Shown here: positions 1 through 27,317 of the stretch, piece after piece
How positions within the stretch are numbered: the stretch's first letter is position 1
How the letters are laid out: every line of letters begins with the position of its first letter
IMG/VR virus record: IMGVR_UViG_2651869694_000010
Reading direction: 5' to 3' (one strand)
Source of the DNA: a virus
Lineage: Duplodnaviria > Heunggongvirae > Uroviricota > Caudoviricetes
DNA: 32,265 bases
The notes under the pieces: generated by a model
Told to the model about the DNA's origin: nothing
Database searches by the model: none
What the model saw: only the letters and a program-made list of their open reading frames with translations
Translations under genes and position numbers: made by a program

Positions 1-684
1 TTCTGGCTCCGCAATGAGCAAACTGAGCGTTTAATAAGCGAGTTGCAGATTTGCAACTCGGTCAATATAGAGCCAGTTAACGTTATTCGTGGCGGAAATA
101 ACCAGGGGACGTATGTCTGCAAAGAACTGGTGTATGCCTATGCAATGTGGATCAGCCCGTCATTCCATCTGAAGGTGATCCGTACTTTCGACATGGTAAC
201 CAGCGCACCGGAAAAATTATCCGGACAGGCTGCTGACAAGATGCAGGCTGGTGTGATTCTGCTGGACTTTATGCGCCGGGAATTAAACCTGTCTAACTCT
301 TCAGTGCTTGGTGCCTGCCAGAAACTCCAGGAGGCTGTTGGCTTACCGAATCTGGCACCGCGCTATGCCATTGATGCTCCTGCTGATGCACACGATGGCT
401 CAAGTCGCCCCACGCTGTCTCTGAGTGCACTGCTGAGGCAGTATGGTATCCGCCTGACGGCTAATCAGGCATATCACCAGATGGTGAAGCTGGGGATCGT
501 TGAACAACGCGAACGATACAGCCGTACCGCGATTAACAACATCAAAAAATTCTGGTCGCTGACGGCGAAAGGCTGCATGTTCGGCAAGAACATCACCAGT
601 CCTGCAAATCCGCGCGAGACGCAGCCGCATTTCTTCGAATCCCGATTCCCTGAGCTGTTAAAGCTGCTCGATACCGTTCATTGA
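1..684 (+). CDS. KilA-N/Bro-N family antirepressor-like protein, 5' end probably outside the window
   Basis: Frame is open from nt 1 with no in-frame stop; the listed ORF begins at a TTG at 43. Motif [28 protein letters not shown] resembles the C-terminal conserved block of KilA-N domains, which normally lies about 70-100 aa into the protein, so the N-terminus is likely missing. Confidence 0.45.
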
Positions 685-685
685 G

Positions 686-1681
686 GTGACCGTGAGAGCA
701 CTACTGACCCCTGAAATTGCCCCGCGTATGGGGATTGTATTGTTCAGGCCAGGTTCAGAGCTGATGCCCCTGTTTATGCAGGGGCGTGTCCTGCTGGAGC
801 CTGAGCCGGAACGTTATTCATCTTTCGCCAGTGGTGCCGTTCCGGCGGCATCACAACCGCTGGCGGATGATCCTACCGTTCGGGCCGTGTTCCGCAATGA
901 GGCAGTGATCCGTCGTGCTGGTGGCGTGGAATGTCTTGAAAGCTGGTTACTTCGTGAAAAGGGCTGTCAGTGGCCTCATTCCGACTGGCACAGCGAGAAC
1001 ATGACCACAATGCGGCACGCTCCGGGAGCAATTCGTCTGTGCTGGCACTGCGATAACCAGCTGCGTGACCAGTTCACGGAACGGCTGGAATCAATGGCAA
1101 CGGATAACTGTGCCCGCTGGGTGTTGTCTGTCGTGCGTCGGGATCTCGGTTTTGATGACAGTCACGTTGTGACAATGCCGGAACTGTGCTGGTGGCTGGT
1201 TCGTAATGATTTGGCGGATGCCTTATCGGAAAGTGCAGCCCGTAAGGCACTGAGATTACCGAAGCCTGTTGTGCCATCTGTCACCCGGGAAAGTGACCTT
1301 GTGCCTTCGGTTCCTGCCACCAGCATCATCCAGGATAAAGCGAAAAAGGTGCTGGCGCTGAAAGTGGATCCGGAGTCGCCGGAGTCTTTTATGTTACGCC
1401 CCAAACGTCGCCGCTGGGTTAATGAAAAGTACACGCGCTGGGTTAAGACGCAGCCGTGCGCATGTTGTGGAAAGCCAGCTGATGATCCCCACCACCTGAT
1501 AGGCCACGGTCAGGGTGGAATGGGTACAAAAGCGCATGATCTCTTTGTGTTGCCTTTGTGCAGAAAGCATCACGACGAGCTGCATGCGGATACCGTGACA
1601 TTTGAAGAGAAGTATGGCTCCCAACTGGAGCTGATATTTCGTTTTATCGATCGTGCGCTGGCAATTGGCGTACTGGCGTAA
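686..1681 (+). CDS. ydfU: DUF968/YdfU-like prophage protein with C-terminal Cys/His (HNH-like) motif
   Basis: 331-aa ORF directly upstream of Q, as ydfU is in Qin-type prophages. C-terminus carries CACCGK...HHLIGHGQGG...CRKHHDELH, a zinc-finger/HNH-type signature. Confidence 0.55.
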   Translation: MTVRALLTPEIAPRMGIVLFRPGSELMPLFMQGRVLLEPEPERYSSFASGAVPAASQPLADDPTVRAVFRNEAVIRRAGGVECLESWLLREKGCQWPHSDWHSENMTTMRHAPGAIRLCWHCDNQLRDQFTERLESMATDNCARWVLSVVRRDLGFDDSHVVTMPELCWWLVRNDLADALSESAARKALRLPKPVVPSVTRESDLVPSVPATSIIQDKAKKVLALKVDPESPESFMLRPKRRRWVNEKYTRWVKTQPCACCGKPADDPHHLIGHGQGGMGTKAHDLFVLPLCRKHHDELHADTVTFEEKYGSQLELIFRFIDRALAIGVLA

Positions 1682-5436: not shown

Positions 5437-6464
<1,028 letters not shown>

Positions 6465-6824
6465 ATTAATATTAAATCGGATTATTTTTAGCGCTGAATG
6501 TGAAATTTAAATAAAAAGGACTCTTCCATGAGTCAAAATCCTTGAAATCTTAAGGGTAAGATAAAAGGTCATTAGACAGAATGACACGTTTTATTAATAA
6601 ATAAAGCTATTGTTTCATTCGTGTGTTTTTCTTTACAAAAGTAATCCTTGCTATGGTTGGTTAATCATGCGTTAATGGTGTTCTGGTTTGTTACAAAATT
6701 ATCTGAAGCAGTCATTGTTATAATTTTATTATTTGTACCTCTTGAGATTTCCTTGTTGGTTTTTCTCTCTGATATTTTTTTTCGGACCATTCTGCCCAAG
6801 GGCTAACTTCTTCAAAAGGTAATA

Positions 6825-7040
6825 ATGATGTCTAACAAAATGACTGGTTTAGTGAAATGGTTTAACCCTGAAAAAGGTTTTGGTTTCATCACGCCGAAAG
6901 ATGGTAGCAAAGATGTGTTTGTCCATTTCTCAGTTATTCAGAGCAACGATTTCAAAACGTTAACTGAGAATCAGGAAGTCGAATTTGGTATTGAGAACGG
7001 ACCTAAAGGCCCCGCGGCTGTTCATGTAGTGGCACTTTGA
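6825..7040 (+). CDS. cspI: cold-shock protein CspI-like
   Basis: [36 protein letters not shown]... is a CspA-family sequence, located after Rz as cspI is in Qin. Confidence 0.8.
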
Positions 7041-7243
7041 GGTAGAAAATATTACAAACCATATTCACTTTAGATGCCCGTGTTGCCATGGTTCTCAGTA
7101 TAGAACATCATCTTTTGATGTTTCTGACAGGAATCCTTTCGGGGCAAAATGTATCTTTTGTAAATCAATGATGATTACATTTGATAATATTTCACAATAC
7201 TTAAATGTTAGCCGTCTGTCGTTAGATTTAAGAAAGTGAAAAT

Positions 7244-7267
7244 GAAGGCTCCTTCGGGAGCTTTTTT
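7244..7267 (+). terminator. candidate intrinsic terminator
   Basis: GCTCC-TTCG-GGAGC hairpin followed by TTTTTT. Confidence 0.45.
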
Positions 7268-7311
7268 GCTTAGTGTCTGGTCGATGGATACTCACATATT
7301 ACGGTAACATT

Positions 7312-7542
7312 ATGAAAAAAATAATAGTTTTTTTTAACTCTGAACCAGCAATGGTAGTGCCAGTGATGACCGGAGTTAACACCATCATGCGTGAATATCC
7401 AAATGGCGAAACAACACACCTCACTGTAATGGCTGCAGGGTTTCCATCTCTGACCGGAGATCATAAAGTCATTTATGTTGCAGCGGATCGACATGTAACT
7501 TCAGAAGAAATTCTGGAAGCAGCAATGAGACTCTTGAATTGA
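7312..7542 (+). CDS. hypothetical small protein (about 76 aa)
   Basis: ORF from ATG at 7312 (the listed ORF starts at an upstream GTG, 7273): MKKIIVFFNSEPAMVVPVMTGVNTIMREYPNGETTHLTVMAAG... No confident family assignment; occupies the Qin accessory position between cspI and gnsB. Confidence 0.35.
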   Translation: MKKIIVFFNSEPAMVVPVMTGVNTIMREYPNGETTHLTVMAAGFPSLTGDHKVIYVAADRHVTSEEILEAAMRLLN

Positions 7543-7711
7543 TTTGATTCTAATGCATTGATAATAAATGATAATCATCTTTATCTGTTTGTGTGAAATT
7601 TAGACCGTCGTATGTTGATTATTGCGATGTTTCATCTTATCTTTTATACGTTTGCTCCATATAATTGACACTACTGTGTACCAGGAAAGTCATAACAGAC
7701 TAAAAGAGGAA

Positions 7712-7889
7712 ATGATGAACATTGAAGAGTTAAAAACAAAAACAGAAGCAGATATTTCTGAATATATAACAAAAAAAAATCATTGAGCTTAAGAAAAAGA
7801 CCGGGAAAGAAGTTACCAGTATCCAGTTTACTGCACGGGAAAAAATGACTGGTCTTGAAAGCTATGATATCAAGATTGATTTAATCTAG
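7712..7889 (+). pseudogene. gnsB: gnsB/gnsA-family gene interrupted by a frameshift in an A9 run
   Basis: MMNIEELKTKTEADISEYITKK runs into a TGA at 7784-7786; removing one A from the A9 tract (7771-7779) restores ...IIELKKKTGKEVTSIQFTAREKMTGLESYDIKIDLI, matching GnsA/GnsB-family proteins as I recall them. Confidence 0.55.
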
Positions 7890-8184
7890 TATGTTTATAG
7901 TATTAGCATCAATTTCTCATCAGATGCTATTCAACAATACAAATTACCCATAAACCTCGTTTTTACGGGGTTTTGTTATATTTAAACATTACCGAATAGA
8001 TATAAATCTCGATTGTCGATGGTATTGGTTGTGTGACAATACCTAGTCTTTCCGGTATGCCTGAAGAGAATACAAACGACAGATTATGTAAGGGAAACGC
8101 GCTGAAACTTTCACTCTTTCATGCTGAGTGATTTGACGTTATATTTTTAGCCGCAAGTGAAGAGCAAACGCATGGAGCGACAAA

Positions 8185-8391
8185 ATGCATAAAGATCAAT
8201 ATACTGATGCCCCCTCCCAGGAGCAGGTTCGTGTAAAAACTATGCTTAATAGCACCATTTCGATGGGTTACCCGGATGTTGTAATTGCATGTATAGAACA
8301 TCAAGTATCTCTGGAAGCATTCAGGGCAATTGAGGCCGCGTTAGTAAAGCACGATAAGAATACGAAGGATTATTCCCTGGTGGTTGACTGA
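8185..8391 (+). CDS. hypothetical small protein (68 aa)
   Basis: ORF only; lies where Qin carries ydfO/ynfO-type accessory genes, but I cannot confirm identity. Confidence 0.3.
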
Positions 8392-8754
8392 TCACCATAA
8401 CTGCTAACCATTCTGACCATTTCACAAGTGACAGAGTCAATATCGTATTCTGTCACTGTCAGGCTAATACAGTACTGCAATTCAACTACAGCAATGCCTC
8501 GTATTTAGGTGAATTTACAATATCGTCCAGTTCGGATGCCGGCTGCATTTCTGAAGATAAGGCATTTCGGTTCGCGTATTTTCCCCTCATGCTCGTCAGT
8601 CCTGCGCGTAGTAAGAAACAGGACACTCACACTAATTTGTGTGGGCATGCTGTGATGTCCTTCTGAATTATCCCCACGCCATTATGTAAAGCTCTGTTTC
8701 AGATGCTCGTCACGGTTGTCAGGCTGTCGGGTCCTCCCTGTGGGGGGCCCTGCC

Positions 8755-8774
8755 ACGGGGCGGGAGCGTCGCGG
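8755..8774. other. cos site (cosN-like cohesive-end region)
   Basis: ACGGGGCGGGAGCGTCGCGG resembles the lambda cosN context ACG-GGGCGGCGACCT-CGCGG as I recall it (four of twelve core positions differ). It lies about 170 bp upstream of the terminase small subunit in a 550-bp non-coding region. Confidence 0.45.
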
Positions 8775-8943
8775 AAAAAGGCTAGTTTTTGAAATTTTAT
8801 TCGTCATCACCACTACTGTAATTGATTGATATTGCAGTGGTTTTATTTTTATGGTGTCGATTCTGATTGTTTTTTGTTCATCACTAACACCGTTTGCCTA
8901 AAGTTGTTCGCAAGATGCATGTTTAAAACATTCTGGAGCGGGT

Positions 8944-9438
8944 ATGGATCGAGAGTTAAAAAATCTGACGCTTAATATCAGTCAACTGGCGGCACTGTCA
9001 GGTGTACATCGCCAGACTGCTGCGGCAAGGCTGCAAAATCTACCCGTTGCAGGGGGGCATGAAAGCAACCTCAAGCTTTATCGGGTGGTTGATATTGTGT
9101 CGGCATTTCTGGCATTACCACCGCCGGTTGCAGAAGGCGAAATGGACGCGCATGAGCGCAAAGCCTGGTATCAGTCTGAACGTGAGCGTCTTAAGTTCGA
9201 ACAGGAAACGGCACAACTCATTCCGGCCAGTGATGTCAGACGGGAGTTTGCCATCTGGGCAAAAGCGGTCGTGCAGGTGCTGGAGACATTACCGGATATT
9301 CTTGAACGTGACTGCGGTCTGCAGCCTGCCGCTGTGAGCCGTGTTCAGTCCATTATTGATGATCTGCGCGATCAGATAGCCCTGCGGGTGACTGAAGCAG
9401 GTGCGGATGATGAGGAGGAATTACAGCAGGAGGAGTAA
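8944..9438 (+). CDS. terminase small subunit (Nu1/NohA-NohD-like)
   Basis: 164 aa with N-terminal helix-turn-helix-like segment LNISQLAALSGVHRQTAAARL and acidic C-terminus, immediately upstream of the large terminase. Confidence 0.8.
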   Translation: MDRELKNLTLNISQLAALSGVHRQTAAARLQNLPVAGGHESNLKLYRVVDIVSAFLALPPPVAEGEMDAHERKAWYQSERERLKFEQETAQLIPASDVRREFAIWAKAVVQVLETLPDILERDCGLQPAAVSRVQSIIDDLRDQIALRVTEAGADDEEELQQEE

Positions 9439-11540
9439 TGCTGAATCAGGAAACCGCAAAGGCAGCACGAACCGATTCAGGTTATATCCTTCGCGCACCG
9501 AGACGAATGCGGGTTGCTGATGCCGTTGCTCAGTATATGCGGGTGCCCATGGGGGCCGGGAACTCAGTCCCGTGGGATCCGCTGGTGGCACCGTATGTTA
9601 TTGAGCCGATGAACTGCCTGGCCTCGCGTGAATACGACGCAGTGATATTTGTTGGCCCGGCACGAACCGGCAAGACTATCGGCCTGATTGACGGCTGGGT
9701 GATTTACAACGTGATTTGCGATCCTGCTGATATGCTGATCATTCAGATGACGGAGGAAAAAGCCCGCGAACACTCCAAAAAACGACTCGCCAGAACGTTT
9801 CGCGTCAGCCCGGAAGTGGTCAGTCGCCTGAGTCCGAACAAAAATGACAACAACGTTTATGACAGAACATTCCTTGCTGGCAACTACCTGAAAATCGGCT
9901 GGCCGTCAGTCAATATCATGTCTTCATCAGATTATAAATGCGTGGCGCTGACGGATTATGACCGTTTTCCGGAAGATATTGATGGTGAGGGGGATGCCTT
10001 CTCTCTTGCCTCAAAACGTACCACCACATTTATGTCCAGTGGTATGACGCTGGTGGAGAGTTCCCCCGGCAGGGATGTGAAGGATGTGAAATGGCGACGG
10101 ACTTCACCGCATGAGGCTCCACCAACCACGGGGATCCTGTCGCTCTATAACCGTGGCGATCGCCGTCGCTGGTACTGGCCCTGTCCACACTGTGGTGAGT
10201 ATTTTCAGCCCTGCGGCGATGTGGTTGCTGGTTTCCGTGATATTGCCGATCCTGTGCTGGCAAGTGAGGCGGCTTATATTCAGTGTCCTTCCTGTTCAGG
10301 ACGGATTTTGCCTGAACAAAAACGCGAGCTGAACGGACGTGGGGTCTGGTTACGGGATGGTGAATCCATCAATGCAGATGGCAGTCGTTATGGTGATCCC
10401 CGGCGTTCACGTATTGCGTCATTCTGGATGGAGGGTCCGGCAGCTGCTTATCAGACACTCTCGCAACTCGTTTACAAACTGCTTACTGCAGAACAGGAAT
10501 ACGAGACAACCGGAAGTGAAGAGACACTCAAGACGGTTATCAATACCGACTGGGGATTACCTTATCTTCCCCGCGCCAGCATGGAGCAACGAAAAAGTGA
10601 ATTGCTTGAGCAGCGGGCAGAGCCAGTTCCTTCCCGCAGTGTGCCGGATGGCGTTAATTTCCTTGTGGCGACAGTGGATGTGCAGGCGGGACGTCATCGC
10701 CGTTTTGTGGTTCAGGTAACGGGCTATGGCAGCCGTGGCGAACGCTGGATTATTGATCGTTACAACATCACGCAGTCATTGCGCGGTGACAGCGACGGGG
10801 AGAGCCAGCGAATTGATCCGGCCAGCTATCCGGAAGACTGGGATGTCCTGCTGACGGATGTTTTTCATAAAAGCTGGCCGCTGGCCTCCGATCCTTCTCA
10901 ACAAATGCGACTGATGGCAATGGCGGTGGACTCCGGCGGTGAAGACGGGGTCACTGATAATGCCTATAAATTCTGGCGTCGTTGCCGTCGTGATGGCCTT
11001 GGTAAACGTATTTACCTGTTTAAGGGTGACAGCATCCGGCGCGCAAAACTGATCAGCCGTACATTCCCTGATAACACCGGACGAACGGGCCGCCGGGCGC
11101 AGGCCGCAGGTGATGTGCCGCTCTGGCTTCTTCAGACGGATGCCCTGAAAGACCGGGTGAATAACGCGTTATGGCGTGACTCGCCAGGTCCCGGCTATGT
11201 GCATTTCCCTGACTGGCTGGGGAGCTGGTTTTACGACGAACTGACGTATGAAGAGCGGAGCAGTGACGGGAAATGGAGTAAGCCGGGTCGCGGTGCCAAC
11301 GAAGCTTTTGACCTGATGGTGTATGCCGAGGCTCTGGTCATTCTGCATGGATACGAAAAGATCCGCTGGCCGGATGCACCGGAGTGGGCGAGCCGGGAAA
11401 CCTGGCTGGAGTGTGTCCCGGACAGTACCGAACCGTCACCCACACCGGAACCGGTATCCACGCCTGTTAAAAAACAAAAACGGAAGAAAACAGTAACTGA
11501 CGATGTTAACCCCTGGCTGACTTCCGGAGGATGGTTATGA
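9438..11540 (+). CDS. A: terminase large subunit (lambda gpA-like)
   Basis: 700 aa with Walker A-like VGPARTGKT near the N-terminus; size and position match lambda gpA. Confidence 0.9.
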   Translation: MLNQETAKAARTDSGYILRAPRRMRVADAVAQYMRVPMGAGNSVPWDPLVAPYVIEPMNCLASREYDAVIFVGPARTGKTIGLIDGWVIYNVICDPADMLIIQMTEEKAREHSKKRLARTFRVSPEVVSRLSPNKNDNNVYDRTFLAGNYLKIGWPSVNIMSSSDYKCVALTDYDRFPEDIDGEGDAFSLASKRTTTFMSSGMTLVESSPGRDVKDVKWRRTSPHEAPPTTGILSLYNRGDRRRWYWPCPHCGEYFQPCGDVVAGFRDIADPVLASEAAYIQCPSCSGRILPEQKRELNGRGVWLRDGESINADGSRYGDPRRSRIASFWMEGPAAAYQTLSQLVYKLLTAEQEYETTGSEETLKTVINTDWGLPYLPRASMEQRKSELLEQRAEPVPSRSVPDGVNFLVATVDVQAGRHRRFVVQVTGYGSRGERWIIDRYNITQSLRGDSDGESQRIDPASYPEDWDVLLTDVFHKSWPLASDPSQQMRLMAMAVDSGGEDGVTDNAYKFWRRCRRDGLGKRIYLFKGDSIRRAKLISRTFPDNTGRTGRRAQAAGDVPLWLLQTDALKDRVNNALWRDSPGPGYVHFPDWLGSWFYDELTYEERSSDGKWSKPGRGANEAFDLMVYAEALVILHGYEKIRWPDAPEWASRETWLECVPDSTEPSPTPEPVSTPVKKQKRKKTVTDDVNPWLTSGGWL

Positions 11541-23903: not shown

Positions 23904-26900
23904 ATGGGTAAAGGCAGCAGTAAGGGGCATACCCCGCGCGAAGCGAAAGATAACCTGAAATCCACGCAGCTGCTGAGTGTGATTGATGCCATCAGCGAAG
24001 GGCCGGTTGAAGGTCCGGTGGATGGATTAAAAAGCGTGCTGCTGAACAGTACGCCGGTGCTGGACAGTGAGGGGAATACCAACATCTCCGGCGTCACGGT
24101 GGTGTTCCGGGCAGGTGAGCAGGAGCAGACACCGCCGGAAGGTTTTGAATCCTCCGGCTCCGAGACTGTGCTGGGTACGGAAGTGAAATATGACACGCCG
24201 ATCACCCGCACCATCACGTCGGCAAACATCGACCGTCTGCGCTTTACCTTCGGTGTGCAGGCACTGGTGGAAACCACTTCAAAGGGGGACCGGAATCCGT
24301 CGGAAGTCCGCCTGCTGGTTCAGATACAGCGTAACGGTGGCTGGGTGACGGAAAAAGACATCACCATTAAGGGCAAAACCACCTCGCAGTATCTGGCCTC
24401 GGTGGTGGTGGATAACCTGCCGCCGCGCCCGTTTAATATCCGGATGCGCAGGATGACGCCGGACAGCACCACAGACCAGCTGCAGAACAAAACGCTCTGG
24501 TCGTCATACACCGAAATCATCGATGTGAAACAGGGCTACCCGAACACGGCACTGGTCGGCGTGCAGGTGGACTCGGAACAGTTCGGCAGTCAGCAGGTGA
24601 GCCGTAATTATCATCTGCGCGGGCGTATTCTGCAGGTGCCGTCGAACTATAACCCGCAGACGCGGCAATACAGCGGTATCTGGGACGGAACGTTTAAGCC
24701 AGCATACAGCAACAACATGGCCTGGTGTCTGTGGGATATGCTGACCCATCCGCGCTACGGCATGGGGAAACGTCTTGGTGCGGCGGATGTGGATAAATGG
24801 GCGCTGTATGTCATCGGCCAGAATTGCGACCAGTCGGTGCCGGATGGCTTTGGTGGCACGGAGCCGCGCATCACCTGTAATGCGTACATGACCACGCAGC
24901 GCAAGGCGTGGGATGTGCTCAGTGATTTCTGCTCGGCGATGCGCTGTATGCCGGTATGGAACGGGCAGACGCTGACGTTCGTGCAGGACCGGCCATCGGA
25001 TAAGGTGTGGACCTATAACCGCAGTAATGTGGTGATGCCGGAAGATGGCGCGCCGTTCCGCTACAGCTTCAGCGCCCTGAAGGACCGTCATAATGCCGTT
25101 GAGGTGAACTGGATTGACCCGGATAACGGCTGGGAGACGGCGACAGAGCTTGTGGAGGACACGCGGGCCATTGCCCGTTACGGTCGTAATGTCACGAAGA
25201 TGGACGCCTTTGGCTGTACCAGCCGGGGGCAGGCACACCGCGCCGGGCTGTGGCTGATTAAAACGGAGCTGCTGGAAACGCAGACCGTGGACTTCAGCGT
25301 GGGTGCTGAAGGGCTTCGCCATGTACCGGGCGATGTCATTGAAATCTGCGATGATGACTATGCCGGTATCAGCACCGGCGGGCGCGTGCTGGCGGTGAAC
25401 AGCCAGACCCGGACGCTGACGCTCGACCGTGAAATCACGCTGCCATCCTCCGGCACCACGCTGATAAGCCTGGTTGACGGGCAGGGTAATCCGGTGAGCG
25501 TGGAGGTCCAGTCCGTCACCGACGGCGTGAAGGTAAAAGTGAGCCGTGTTCCTGACGGCGTTGCCGGATACAGCGTGTGGGGGCTGAAGCTGCCGACGCT
25601 GCGCCAGCGCCTGTTCCGCTGCGTGAGTATCCGTGAGAACGACGACGGCACGTATGCCATCACCGCCGTGCAGCATGTACCGGAAAAAGAGGCCATCGTG
25701 GATAACGGGGCGCACTTTGACGGCGACCAGAGCGGAACGGTAAACGGTGTCACGCCGCCAGCAGTACAGCACCTGACCGCAGAAGTCACCGCAGACAGCG
25801 GGGAATACCAGGTGCTGGCGCGCTGGGACACGCCGAAGGTGGTGAAGGGCGTGAGCTTTATGCTTCGCCTGACCGTGGCAGCTGATGACGGCAGTGAGCG
25901 GCTGGTCAGCACGGCCCGGACGACGGAAACCACATACCGCTTCACACAACTGGCGCTGGGGAACTACAGGCTGACAGTCCGGGCAGTAAATGCGTGGGGG
26001 CAGCAGGGCGATCCGGCATCGGTATCGTTCCGGATTGCCGCACCGGCAGCGCCGTCGCAGATTGAGCTGACACCGGGGTATTTTCAGATAACCGCCACGC
26101 CGCATCTTGCGGTTTATGATCCGACGGTACAGTTTGAGTTCTGGTTCTCGGAAAAGCGGATTGCGGATATCAGGCAGGTTGATACCAGCGCGCGCTATCT
26201 TGGCACGGGGATGTACTGGATAGCCGCCAGTATCAATATCAAACCGGGCCATGATTATTACTTTTATATCCGCAGTGTGAACACCGTTGGCAAATCGGCA
26301 TTCGTGGAGGCTGTCGGTCAGGCGAGCGATGATGCGGAAGGTTACCTGGATTTTTTCAAAGGCCAGATAACCGAATCCCATCTCGGCAAGGAGCTGCTGG
26401 AAAAAGTCGAGCTGACGGAGGATAACGCCAGCAAACTGGAGGAGTTTTCGAAAGAGTGGCAGGACGCTAACGATAAGTGGAATGCCATGTGGGGCGTCAA
26501 AATTGAGCAGACCAAAGACGGCAAACATTATGTCGCGGGTATTGGCCTCAGCATGGAGGACACGGAAGAAGGCAAGCTGAGCCAGTTTCTGGTTGCCGCT
26601 AACCGTATCGCGTTTATTGACCCGGCAAACGGGAATGAAACGCCGATGTTTGTGGCGCAGGGCAATCAGATATTTATGAACGACGTGTTCCTGAAGCGCC
26701 TGACGGCACCCACCATTACCAGCGGTGGCAGTCCTCCGGTATTTTCCCTGACATCAGACGGAAAGCTGACGGCGAAAAATGCGGATATCAGTGGCAGTGT
26801 GAATGCGAACTCCGGGACGCTCAACAATGTCACGATAAATGAAAACTGTACGATTAAGGGCATGCTGGAGGCGACCCAGGTCAGAGGGGATTTCGTTAAA

Positions 26901-27317
26901 GCTGTATCAAAAGCCTTCCCGAAAAAAGTCGGTACGTGGGGTAACACGGAAACACCAAACGGTACGGTTACAGTCACCATCAGCGATGATCATAACTTTG
27001 ACCGTCAAATCATTATTCCGCCCATTATCTTTAACGGAATAGCGTATAGCGATCCGGGAAGTGGTAATAACCCGGGAGGTACAAGATACACGGGTTATGG
27101 TTTTGAAGTTCGCAAAAACGGTGTATTAATCGCATCCAGAGAAACTAAAGGGGCCATTCCCGGTAGCTACAGTGCGGTTATTGATATGCCGAGTGGCAGG
27201 GGAAGCGTCACTCTGGAGTTTAAGGTTTTCCATAAAGGCAATCAGCGGGCAGGTAATATCACCGACTGTACGGTGATTGTGACCAAAAAAGCCGCTTCCG
27301 GCATCAGTATTCGTTGA
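23904..27317 (+). CDS. J: host specificity / central tail fibre protein J
   Basis: 1137 aa, gpJ-sized, in the gpJ position; conserved N-terminal body with a distinct C-terminal region. Confidence 0.9.

Follow-up and report, generated by a model that had tools for sequence, protein, structure and literature searches.

A gnsB gene carried by a lambdoid, Qin-like prophage of an E. coli draft genome is frameshifted in the deposited sequence by a single extra A: nine A stand where the great majority of related loci have eight. The window, i.e., the whole stretch of DNA analysed (32,265 nucleotides), has no other indel relative to its nearest complete relative. The frameshift is in our judgement not a programmed one, and we believe, with modest confidence, that the extra base reflects a genuine and recent pseudogenisation by replication slippage.

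The gnsB locus and its surroundings

As annotated in the complete genome closest to the window, the prophage genes are ordered as follows: antiterminator, cspF, cspB, holin, lysozyme, rzpQ; then cspI, ynfQ, ynfR, ynfN, gnsB and an ORF of 68 aa; and finally a DUF1441/Nu1-like gene, terminase, portal, capsid and tail genes. The presence of cspI with its thermoregulator leader marks the gnsB block as a cold-shock gene cluster, and gnsB is a part of this known cold-shock accessory block between the lysis and packaging genes. A known RNA overlapping gnsB was ruled out, as the Rfam scan of 6000-9500 gave the cspA thermoregulator upstream only. The features used below are as follows.

6670..7086, + strand: cspI with a cspA-type thermoregulator 5' leader (CDS 6825-7040; Rfam RF01766, 114.9 bits, E=6e-30; Pfam CSD; RefSeq)
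7309..7542, + strand: ynfN, the upstream neighbour of gnsB in the block cspI-ynfQ-ynfR-ynfN-gnsB (ORF list and RefSeq)
7704..7709, + strand: Shine-Dalgarno-like AAGAGG, 5 nt before ATG 7715 and 2 nt before ATG 7712 (read from the sequence)
7715..7786, + strand: truncated gnsB frame, 23 codons MNIEELKTKTEADISEYITKKNH and TGA 7784-7786 (24 codons if counted from ATG 7712)
7771..7779, + strand: A9 homopolymer; the in-frame state of relatives is A8, ACA AAA AAA ATC = T-K-K-I
7780..7889, + strand: C-terminal two thirds of gnsB (IIELKKKTGKEVTSIQFTAREKMTGLESYDIKIDLI, TAG 7887-7889), out of frame, at +1 with respect to the start
7952..7983, + strand: terminator-like hairpin (7952-7973, 9 pairs) with a T-rich tail, 63 nt past the gnsB stop

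Positions 7770-7780, read both directly and by script, are C-AAAAAAAAA-T, so that the A run spans 7771-7779. No other homopolymer of the window is as long; just four more reach eight letters, two A8 (5009 and 6046) and two T8 (6775 and 7328). The frame opened by ATG 7712 reads MMNIEELKTKTEADISEYITKKNH, 24 codons, and then meets TGA 7784-7786. With one A removed it becomes MMNIEELKTKTEADISEYITKKIIELKKKTGKEVTSIQFTAREKMTGLESYDIKIDLI*, 58 aa from ATG 7712 or 57 from ATG 7715, with the stop TAG 7887-7889; EKMTGLESYDIK is the C-terminal peptide of full-length GnsB. The RefSeq orthologue has 57 aa (15715-15888 of L001) and begins at the second ATG, window 7715, which is likely to be the true start; the stop is then reached 23 codons in. 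Another ORF across this region, of 54 aa and started by TTG (7622-7783), has no record by exact look-up and is absent from the protein collection; gene callers do not call it, and its absence is therefore uninformative on the frequency of A9.

The repaired product matches the Pfam family GnsAB_toxin (PF08178) over 54 of 54 profile positions (E=2.2e-33) and aligns to GnsA, known from the crystal structures PDB 4XO1/4XO2, over 56 residues (E=8e-20). Even the 24-aa stub alone matches profile positions 1-21 with 34.4 bits at a cut-off of 27. A query of 401 bp (window 7600-8000, gnsB included) matches hundreds of annotated gnsB genes bar one base, so the resemblance to gnsB does not arise by chance. 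As sequenced, the uninterrupted ORF of about 57 aa expected of a PF08178 member is broken by TGA 7784-7786; on these alignments the locus is a GnsA/GnsB family member by descent, disrupted as sequenced. NCBIfam offered no match to any of GnsB, YnfN and the downstream 68-aa ORF, and Pfam gave none for YnfN or the 68-aa ORF.

The initial annotation had described a gnsB-like gene frameshifted in A9 7771-7779, ending at a TGA 24 codons in and giving a GnsA/GnsB-like product of about 58 aa with one A fewer. All of this was borne out by the family match and by annotated relatives that differ by this base, provided that 24 codons are counted from ATG 7712 and 23 from the likelier ATG 7715. The biology ascribed to the family, an effect on membrane lipids and a toxin-like role, is likewise backed by published sources, which concern gnsA and gnsB of K-12. 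According to PMC10607373, which draws on Sugai 2001/2004, overexpression of gnsA/gnsB raises unsaturated fatty acids and alters phospholipids, and PMC8484670, which cites Wei 2015, counts ymcE-gnsA among the toxin-antitoxin pairs. The Pfam label of the PF08178 family is “GnsA/GnsB toxin”.

The window is the start of the draft contig JHSR01000015.1 (GCA_001266075.1); from contig position 3 onwards the two are identical, A9 included, in all 11,681 bases compared. The record has no gene call at 7042-8187 of this contig (L290, offset +2 relative to the window), i.e., gnsB was skipped. The contig begins within the prophage KilA-N gene (window 1-700; L290 1-686), so the draft assembly has the prophage's early region on a different contig. 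A second assembly of the same lineage was sought by a lineage-specific DUF968 variant (T62, S179), which returned the source contig only.

Of the complete genomes, E. coli F1267 (NZ_OY754416.1) is the nearest. Aligned over all of its 32,265 bp, the window differs from this genome by 31 substitutions and a single indel, the extra A of gnsB. The four other 8-nt homopolymers are identical in the two sequences, and together with the single indel this indicates that homopolymers are not a general source of noise in the assembly. The 1.1-kb haplotype around the tract is that of the A8-bearing F1267, and gnsB, including its out-of-frame part 7780-7889, has zero substitutions relative to the intact F1267 orthologue. 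Since the gene carries no other change, the event that added the A is either recent or artefactual.

A separate observation from the same alignment concerns the tail gene J (host specificity). Of the 31 substitutions, 24 cluster in 256 bp of this gene (window 26708-26963) and produce 8 amino-acid changes at residues 943-1009. The clustering suggests a small patch of recombination at the receptor-binding end of J.

Tract length among related loci

The initial annotation had proposed comparing tract length across relatives, and the comparison showed that A8 is the norm and that A7 and A9 are rare. Loci of the window's allele class were collected with the pattern GAATATATAAC-N{6,12}-TCATTGAGCTTAAG. 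A second class, about 92% identical and found in about 1,500 complete genomes (e.g., phage Tritos), has A8 as well. The counts were as follows.

IMG/VR viral contigs, window's allele class: A8 98, A7 1, A9 0
Metagenome contigs, window's allele class: A8 62, A7 4, A9 0
GTDB species representative (E. ruysiae), window's allele class: A8 1, A7 0, A9 0
IMG/VR viral contigs, second allele class: A8 109, A7 8, A9 2
Both classes pooled (n=285): A8 270, A7 13, A9 2; out-of-frame 5.3%

At least two A7 contigs (L131, with 3x coverage, and L140) carry further homopolymer indels, so some of the census variation is artefact. Among 5,426 complete E. coli genomes none equals the window across the tract. The ranked queries covered about 640 complete genomes with the window's allele class, and the matches listed include at least one A9 (NZ_CM142764.1, strain GPEC60-33-648, on another haplotype) and at least one A7 (NZ_CP104123.1), both counts being lower bounds. 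The exact 24-aa stub is also on record as WP_368731996.1, with the same A9, from a contig of 381 bp in an assembly labelled “Listeria monocytogenes”; we presume that this contig is E. coli or prophage contamination. The length polymorphism among isolates that a contingency locus would display is thus present (13 A7 and 2 A9 in 285 loci, and the complete genomes).

Sixteen out-of-frame loci had enough flank (450 bp on either side) for comparison, 13 with A7 and 3 with A9, and each of them is separated by 0-3 SNPs from a sequence with A8. The out-of-frame copies are thus shallow, terminal and independent events; they are spread over at least 10 haplotypes in both allele classes, and no frameshifted clade was seen among them.

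Four other runs of the same prophage region served as controls, and their variation is on the whole comparable to that of the gnsB tract.

6775-6782: intergenic T8, 15/128 variant (11.7%)
7315-7321: A7 in the ynfN leader, 8/132 variant
7328-7335: T8 in the ynfN leader, 16/135 variant
6046-6053: A8 in the coding region of rzpQ, 1/111 variant (0.9%)

The gnsB value (15/285, 5.3%), which includes some artefacts, lies above that of the rzpQ A8 (Fisher p=0.049) and below that of the intergenic T8 (p=0.024). Between the two gnsB allele classes, dN/dS=0.18 with dS=0.21. The intact gnsB frame is kept by purifying selection, judging from the A8 state of 270 of 285 loci across both classes together with this dN/dS. 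The initial annotation had named length variation without selection for either state as evidence against its reading; the variation is indeed found (15/285), whereas the absence of selection is not, A8 being clearly favoured.

The control runs gave some observations of their own. The T8 at 6775-6782 lies in the cspI leader (inside the RF01766 match 6670-7086), and related prophage loci have T7, T8 and T9 in 8, 113 and 7 cases. Near the annotated 5' end of ynfN, the A7 at 7315-7321 is A8 or A6 in 8 of 132 related loci, and the T8 at 7328-7335 is T7 in 16 of 135; in two loci (L119 and L123) A8 and T7 occur together near the ynfN start as a compensating pair, and the annotation of phage Tritos has a shorter YnfN of 51 aa. 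For these reasons the 77-aa start of ynfN may be wrong, and the two runs may lie in a leader.

Origin of the extra A and output of the A9 allele

The explanation that we prefer is as follows. Replication slippage would have added one A to the mutation-prone A8 run of gnsB. Translation from ATG 7715 would then stop after 23 residues with the loss of the conserved C-terminal two thirds (FTAREKMTGLESYD...), and the A9 allele would thereby be a recent loss-of-function pseudogene. Full-length GnsB would remain at an error level only, through a polymerase slip (-1 A or +2 A) or a +1 slip of tRNA-Lys on AAA-A, and should amount to a small fraction of the normal output.

The last point can be considered from the sequence and from published work on E. 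coli. Restoring the frame takes RNA with A8 or A11 (-1 or +2 nt) or the tRNA-Lys slip, which by reading of the sequence would yield exactly the wild-type protein. The commonest polymerase error, +1 A in RNA, leads to the third frame, which ends after 49 aa. The run reaches nine A/T, the threshold of transcriptional slippage in many bacteria (Baranov et al. 2005, PMC1088944), at 7771-7779; conserved run length and a split ORF, which would go with programmed slippage, are not found, as a single ORF with A8 is the layout of 270 of 285 loci and A9 is isolated. The poly(A) runs tested with E. coli RNA polymerase gave no deletion-type rescue that could be detected (PMC6260861). Of the deletions in E. 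coli transcripts, less than 1% begin in homopolymers, and 1-nt homopolymer deletions are rare (PMC5574713). Because the polymerase disfavours the required RNA slips, rescue of the A9 allele by slippage, although possible in principle, would probably be small at most. The same A8-to-A9 type of frameshift has been called a “pseudo pseudogene” and argued to be partly active (Baranov et al. 2005), so the word “dead” may be too strong for the A9 gnsB.

Two candidate elements of programmed ribosomal frameshifting were rejected. The -1 frameshift on A-AAA-AAA leads to the third frame, ...KKK SLSLRKRPGKKLPVSSLLHGKK*, which ends after 49 residues; and the 91 nt past the tract, taken as a possible stimulatory hairpin, have z=-1.6, with 17 of 200 shuffles folding equally well. 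The locus thus has neither a heptamer leading into the downstream frame nor the accompanying structure of a programmed -1 site. It can be added that in the normal A8 gene (window 7769-7786) a hypothetical -1 slip on A-AAA-AAA would lead to AAT CAT TGA and to the same 23-aa peptide as that of the A9 allele.

Considering the origin of the ninth A, a sequencing or assembly error deserves serious attention; we hold it to be the lesser chance but a substantial one. The strain would then truly have A8 and an intact gnsB, with the ninth A a miscall of the consensus. The window comes from a draft WGS contig and the miscall would fall in its longest homopolymer; out-of-frame loci make up 15 of 285 in the draft and metagenome collections, compared with at least one A9 and at least one A7 among about 640 complete genomes; two A7 contigs of the census bear other homopolymer indels; and the other carrier of the 24-aa stub is a 381-bp contig, of low quality or a contaminant. 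Real indels in runs of eight nucleotides are nevertheless expected at appreciable rates. The extra A is alone in 32 kb when compared with F1267, with four 8-nt runs correct, and another, independent finished chromosome (NZ_CM142764.1) shows the same A9 with no second frameshift in 49 kb; both speak against an error. The initial annotation had listed error, pseudogene and slippage-prone expression or switching side by side; the first two retain their weight, whereas slippage-prone expression or switching is without support: A8 is conserved, and the other lengths are rare, shallow and bidirectional.

It is tempting to propose a phase-variable switch, in which replication slippage toggles a dosage-toxic GnsB between ON (A8) and OFF (A7 or A9) under selection. 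Such a mechanism would fit the retention of A8 in both allele classes where AAG or another Thr codon could have interrupted the run, the recurrence of A7 and A9 in many backgrounds (5.3%), a variation somewhat above that of the rzpQ coding A8 (1/111, p=0.049) and the toxin-like description of the family. We consider it very improbable nonetheless: the OFF states are rare, shallow and without clades, the tract is short for a switch, common descent would lead one to expect its conservation at dS 0.21, part of its variation is artefact, and this variation stays below that of the neutral intergenic T8 (15/128, p=0.024), as fits mutation filtered by weak purifying selection. Programmed recoding, by which the A9 allele would give useful full-length GnsB through transcriptional slippage or +1 ribosomal frameshifting, is in our opinion scarcely credible. 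Nine A is the length at which slippage shows in many bacteria and the change from A8 is of the “pseudo pseudogene” class (PMC1088944), the tRNA-Lys slip would restore the protein exactly, and the downstream frame is still intact. The two-ORF layout is not conserved, however, relatives having a single ORF with A8; -1 or +2 nt are needed in RNA while the common +1 gives the third frame of 49 aa; deletion rescue on poly(A) is undetectable (PMC6260861) and homopolymer deletions are rare (PMC5574713); there is no downstream stimulatory structure; and the -1 slip on A-AAA-AAA enters the wrong frame. Even jointly, a selected switch and programmed recoding have a slim chance. The proposal that either A8 is a selected ON/OFF toggle or A9 a leaky “pseudo pseudogene” giving a low, non-toxic dose of GnsB seems to us improbable.

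Significance and comparison with known systems

Replication slippage in gnsB, the reading that we retain, describes an ordinary event: gene, family and type of lesion were all known before, another genome is recorded with the identical A9, and the significance beyond annotation is small. The label of the locus should be gnsB, frameshifted (a pseudogene or a possible sequencing error), rather than two small ORFs or nothing. The A8 of gnsB is a recurrent indel site hit independently in many E. coli prophages, so presence/absence calls in pangenome and toxin-antitoxin surveys are noisy at this base. Trace rescue, if true, would add one more “pseudo pseudogene” to the class described in 2005; a toggle or a leaky A9, if true, would be a rare case of homopolymer phase variation or recoding in an accessory gene of an E. 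coli prophage.

The closest known gene is gnsB (ydfY) of the Qin-type prophage of E. coli. The repaired product is identical to GnsB of the WP_001019207.1 type, found on at least 1000 contigs, and the neighbourhood cspI-ynfQ-ynfR-ynfN-gnsB between the lysis and terminase genes is the same. The copy in the window differs in the extra A, which cuts the product to 23 residues.

The same A9 in the same position is found in gnsB of GPEC60-33-648 (NZ_CM142764.1, ACYX3Y_RS00895), which PGAP labels as frameshifted; it is the sole CDS with this label in 49 kb. That copy belongs to another prophage and haplotype, with 5 SNPs in 1.1 kb, a downstream IS3 and integration beside rspB, and its A9 is therefore an independent event. 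The prophage beside rspB is decaying in other ways too. Its IS3-family element (L169 25026-26254) lies between the downstream 68-aa ORF and the DUF1441/terminase genes.

With respect to the lesion, the “pseudo pseudogenes” of Baranov, Hammer, Zhou, Gesteland and Atkins (2005, PMC1088944) are the nearest precedent, i.e., the same change from A8 to A9 in an E. coli gene with one-ORF orthologues; gnsB, ydfY and the peptide EELKTK are absent from the supplementary files of that paper. For gnsB, later E. coli data suggest that a slip in the required direction would be inefficient (PMC6260861, PMC5574713). The known programmed sites (Thermus thermophilus dnaX A9, Shigella mxiE, the A9 of IS elements) share with the window a coding run of nine A on the sense strand. 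Their homologues conserve the run length and the two-frame layout, whereas the relatives of gnsB conserve A8 and one frame.
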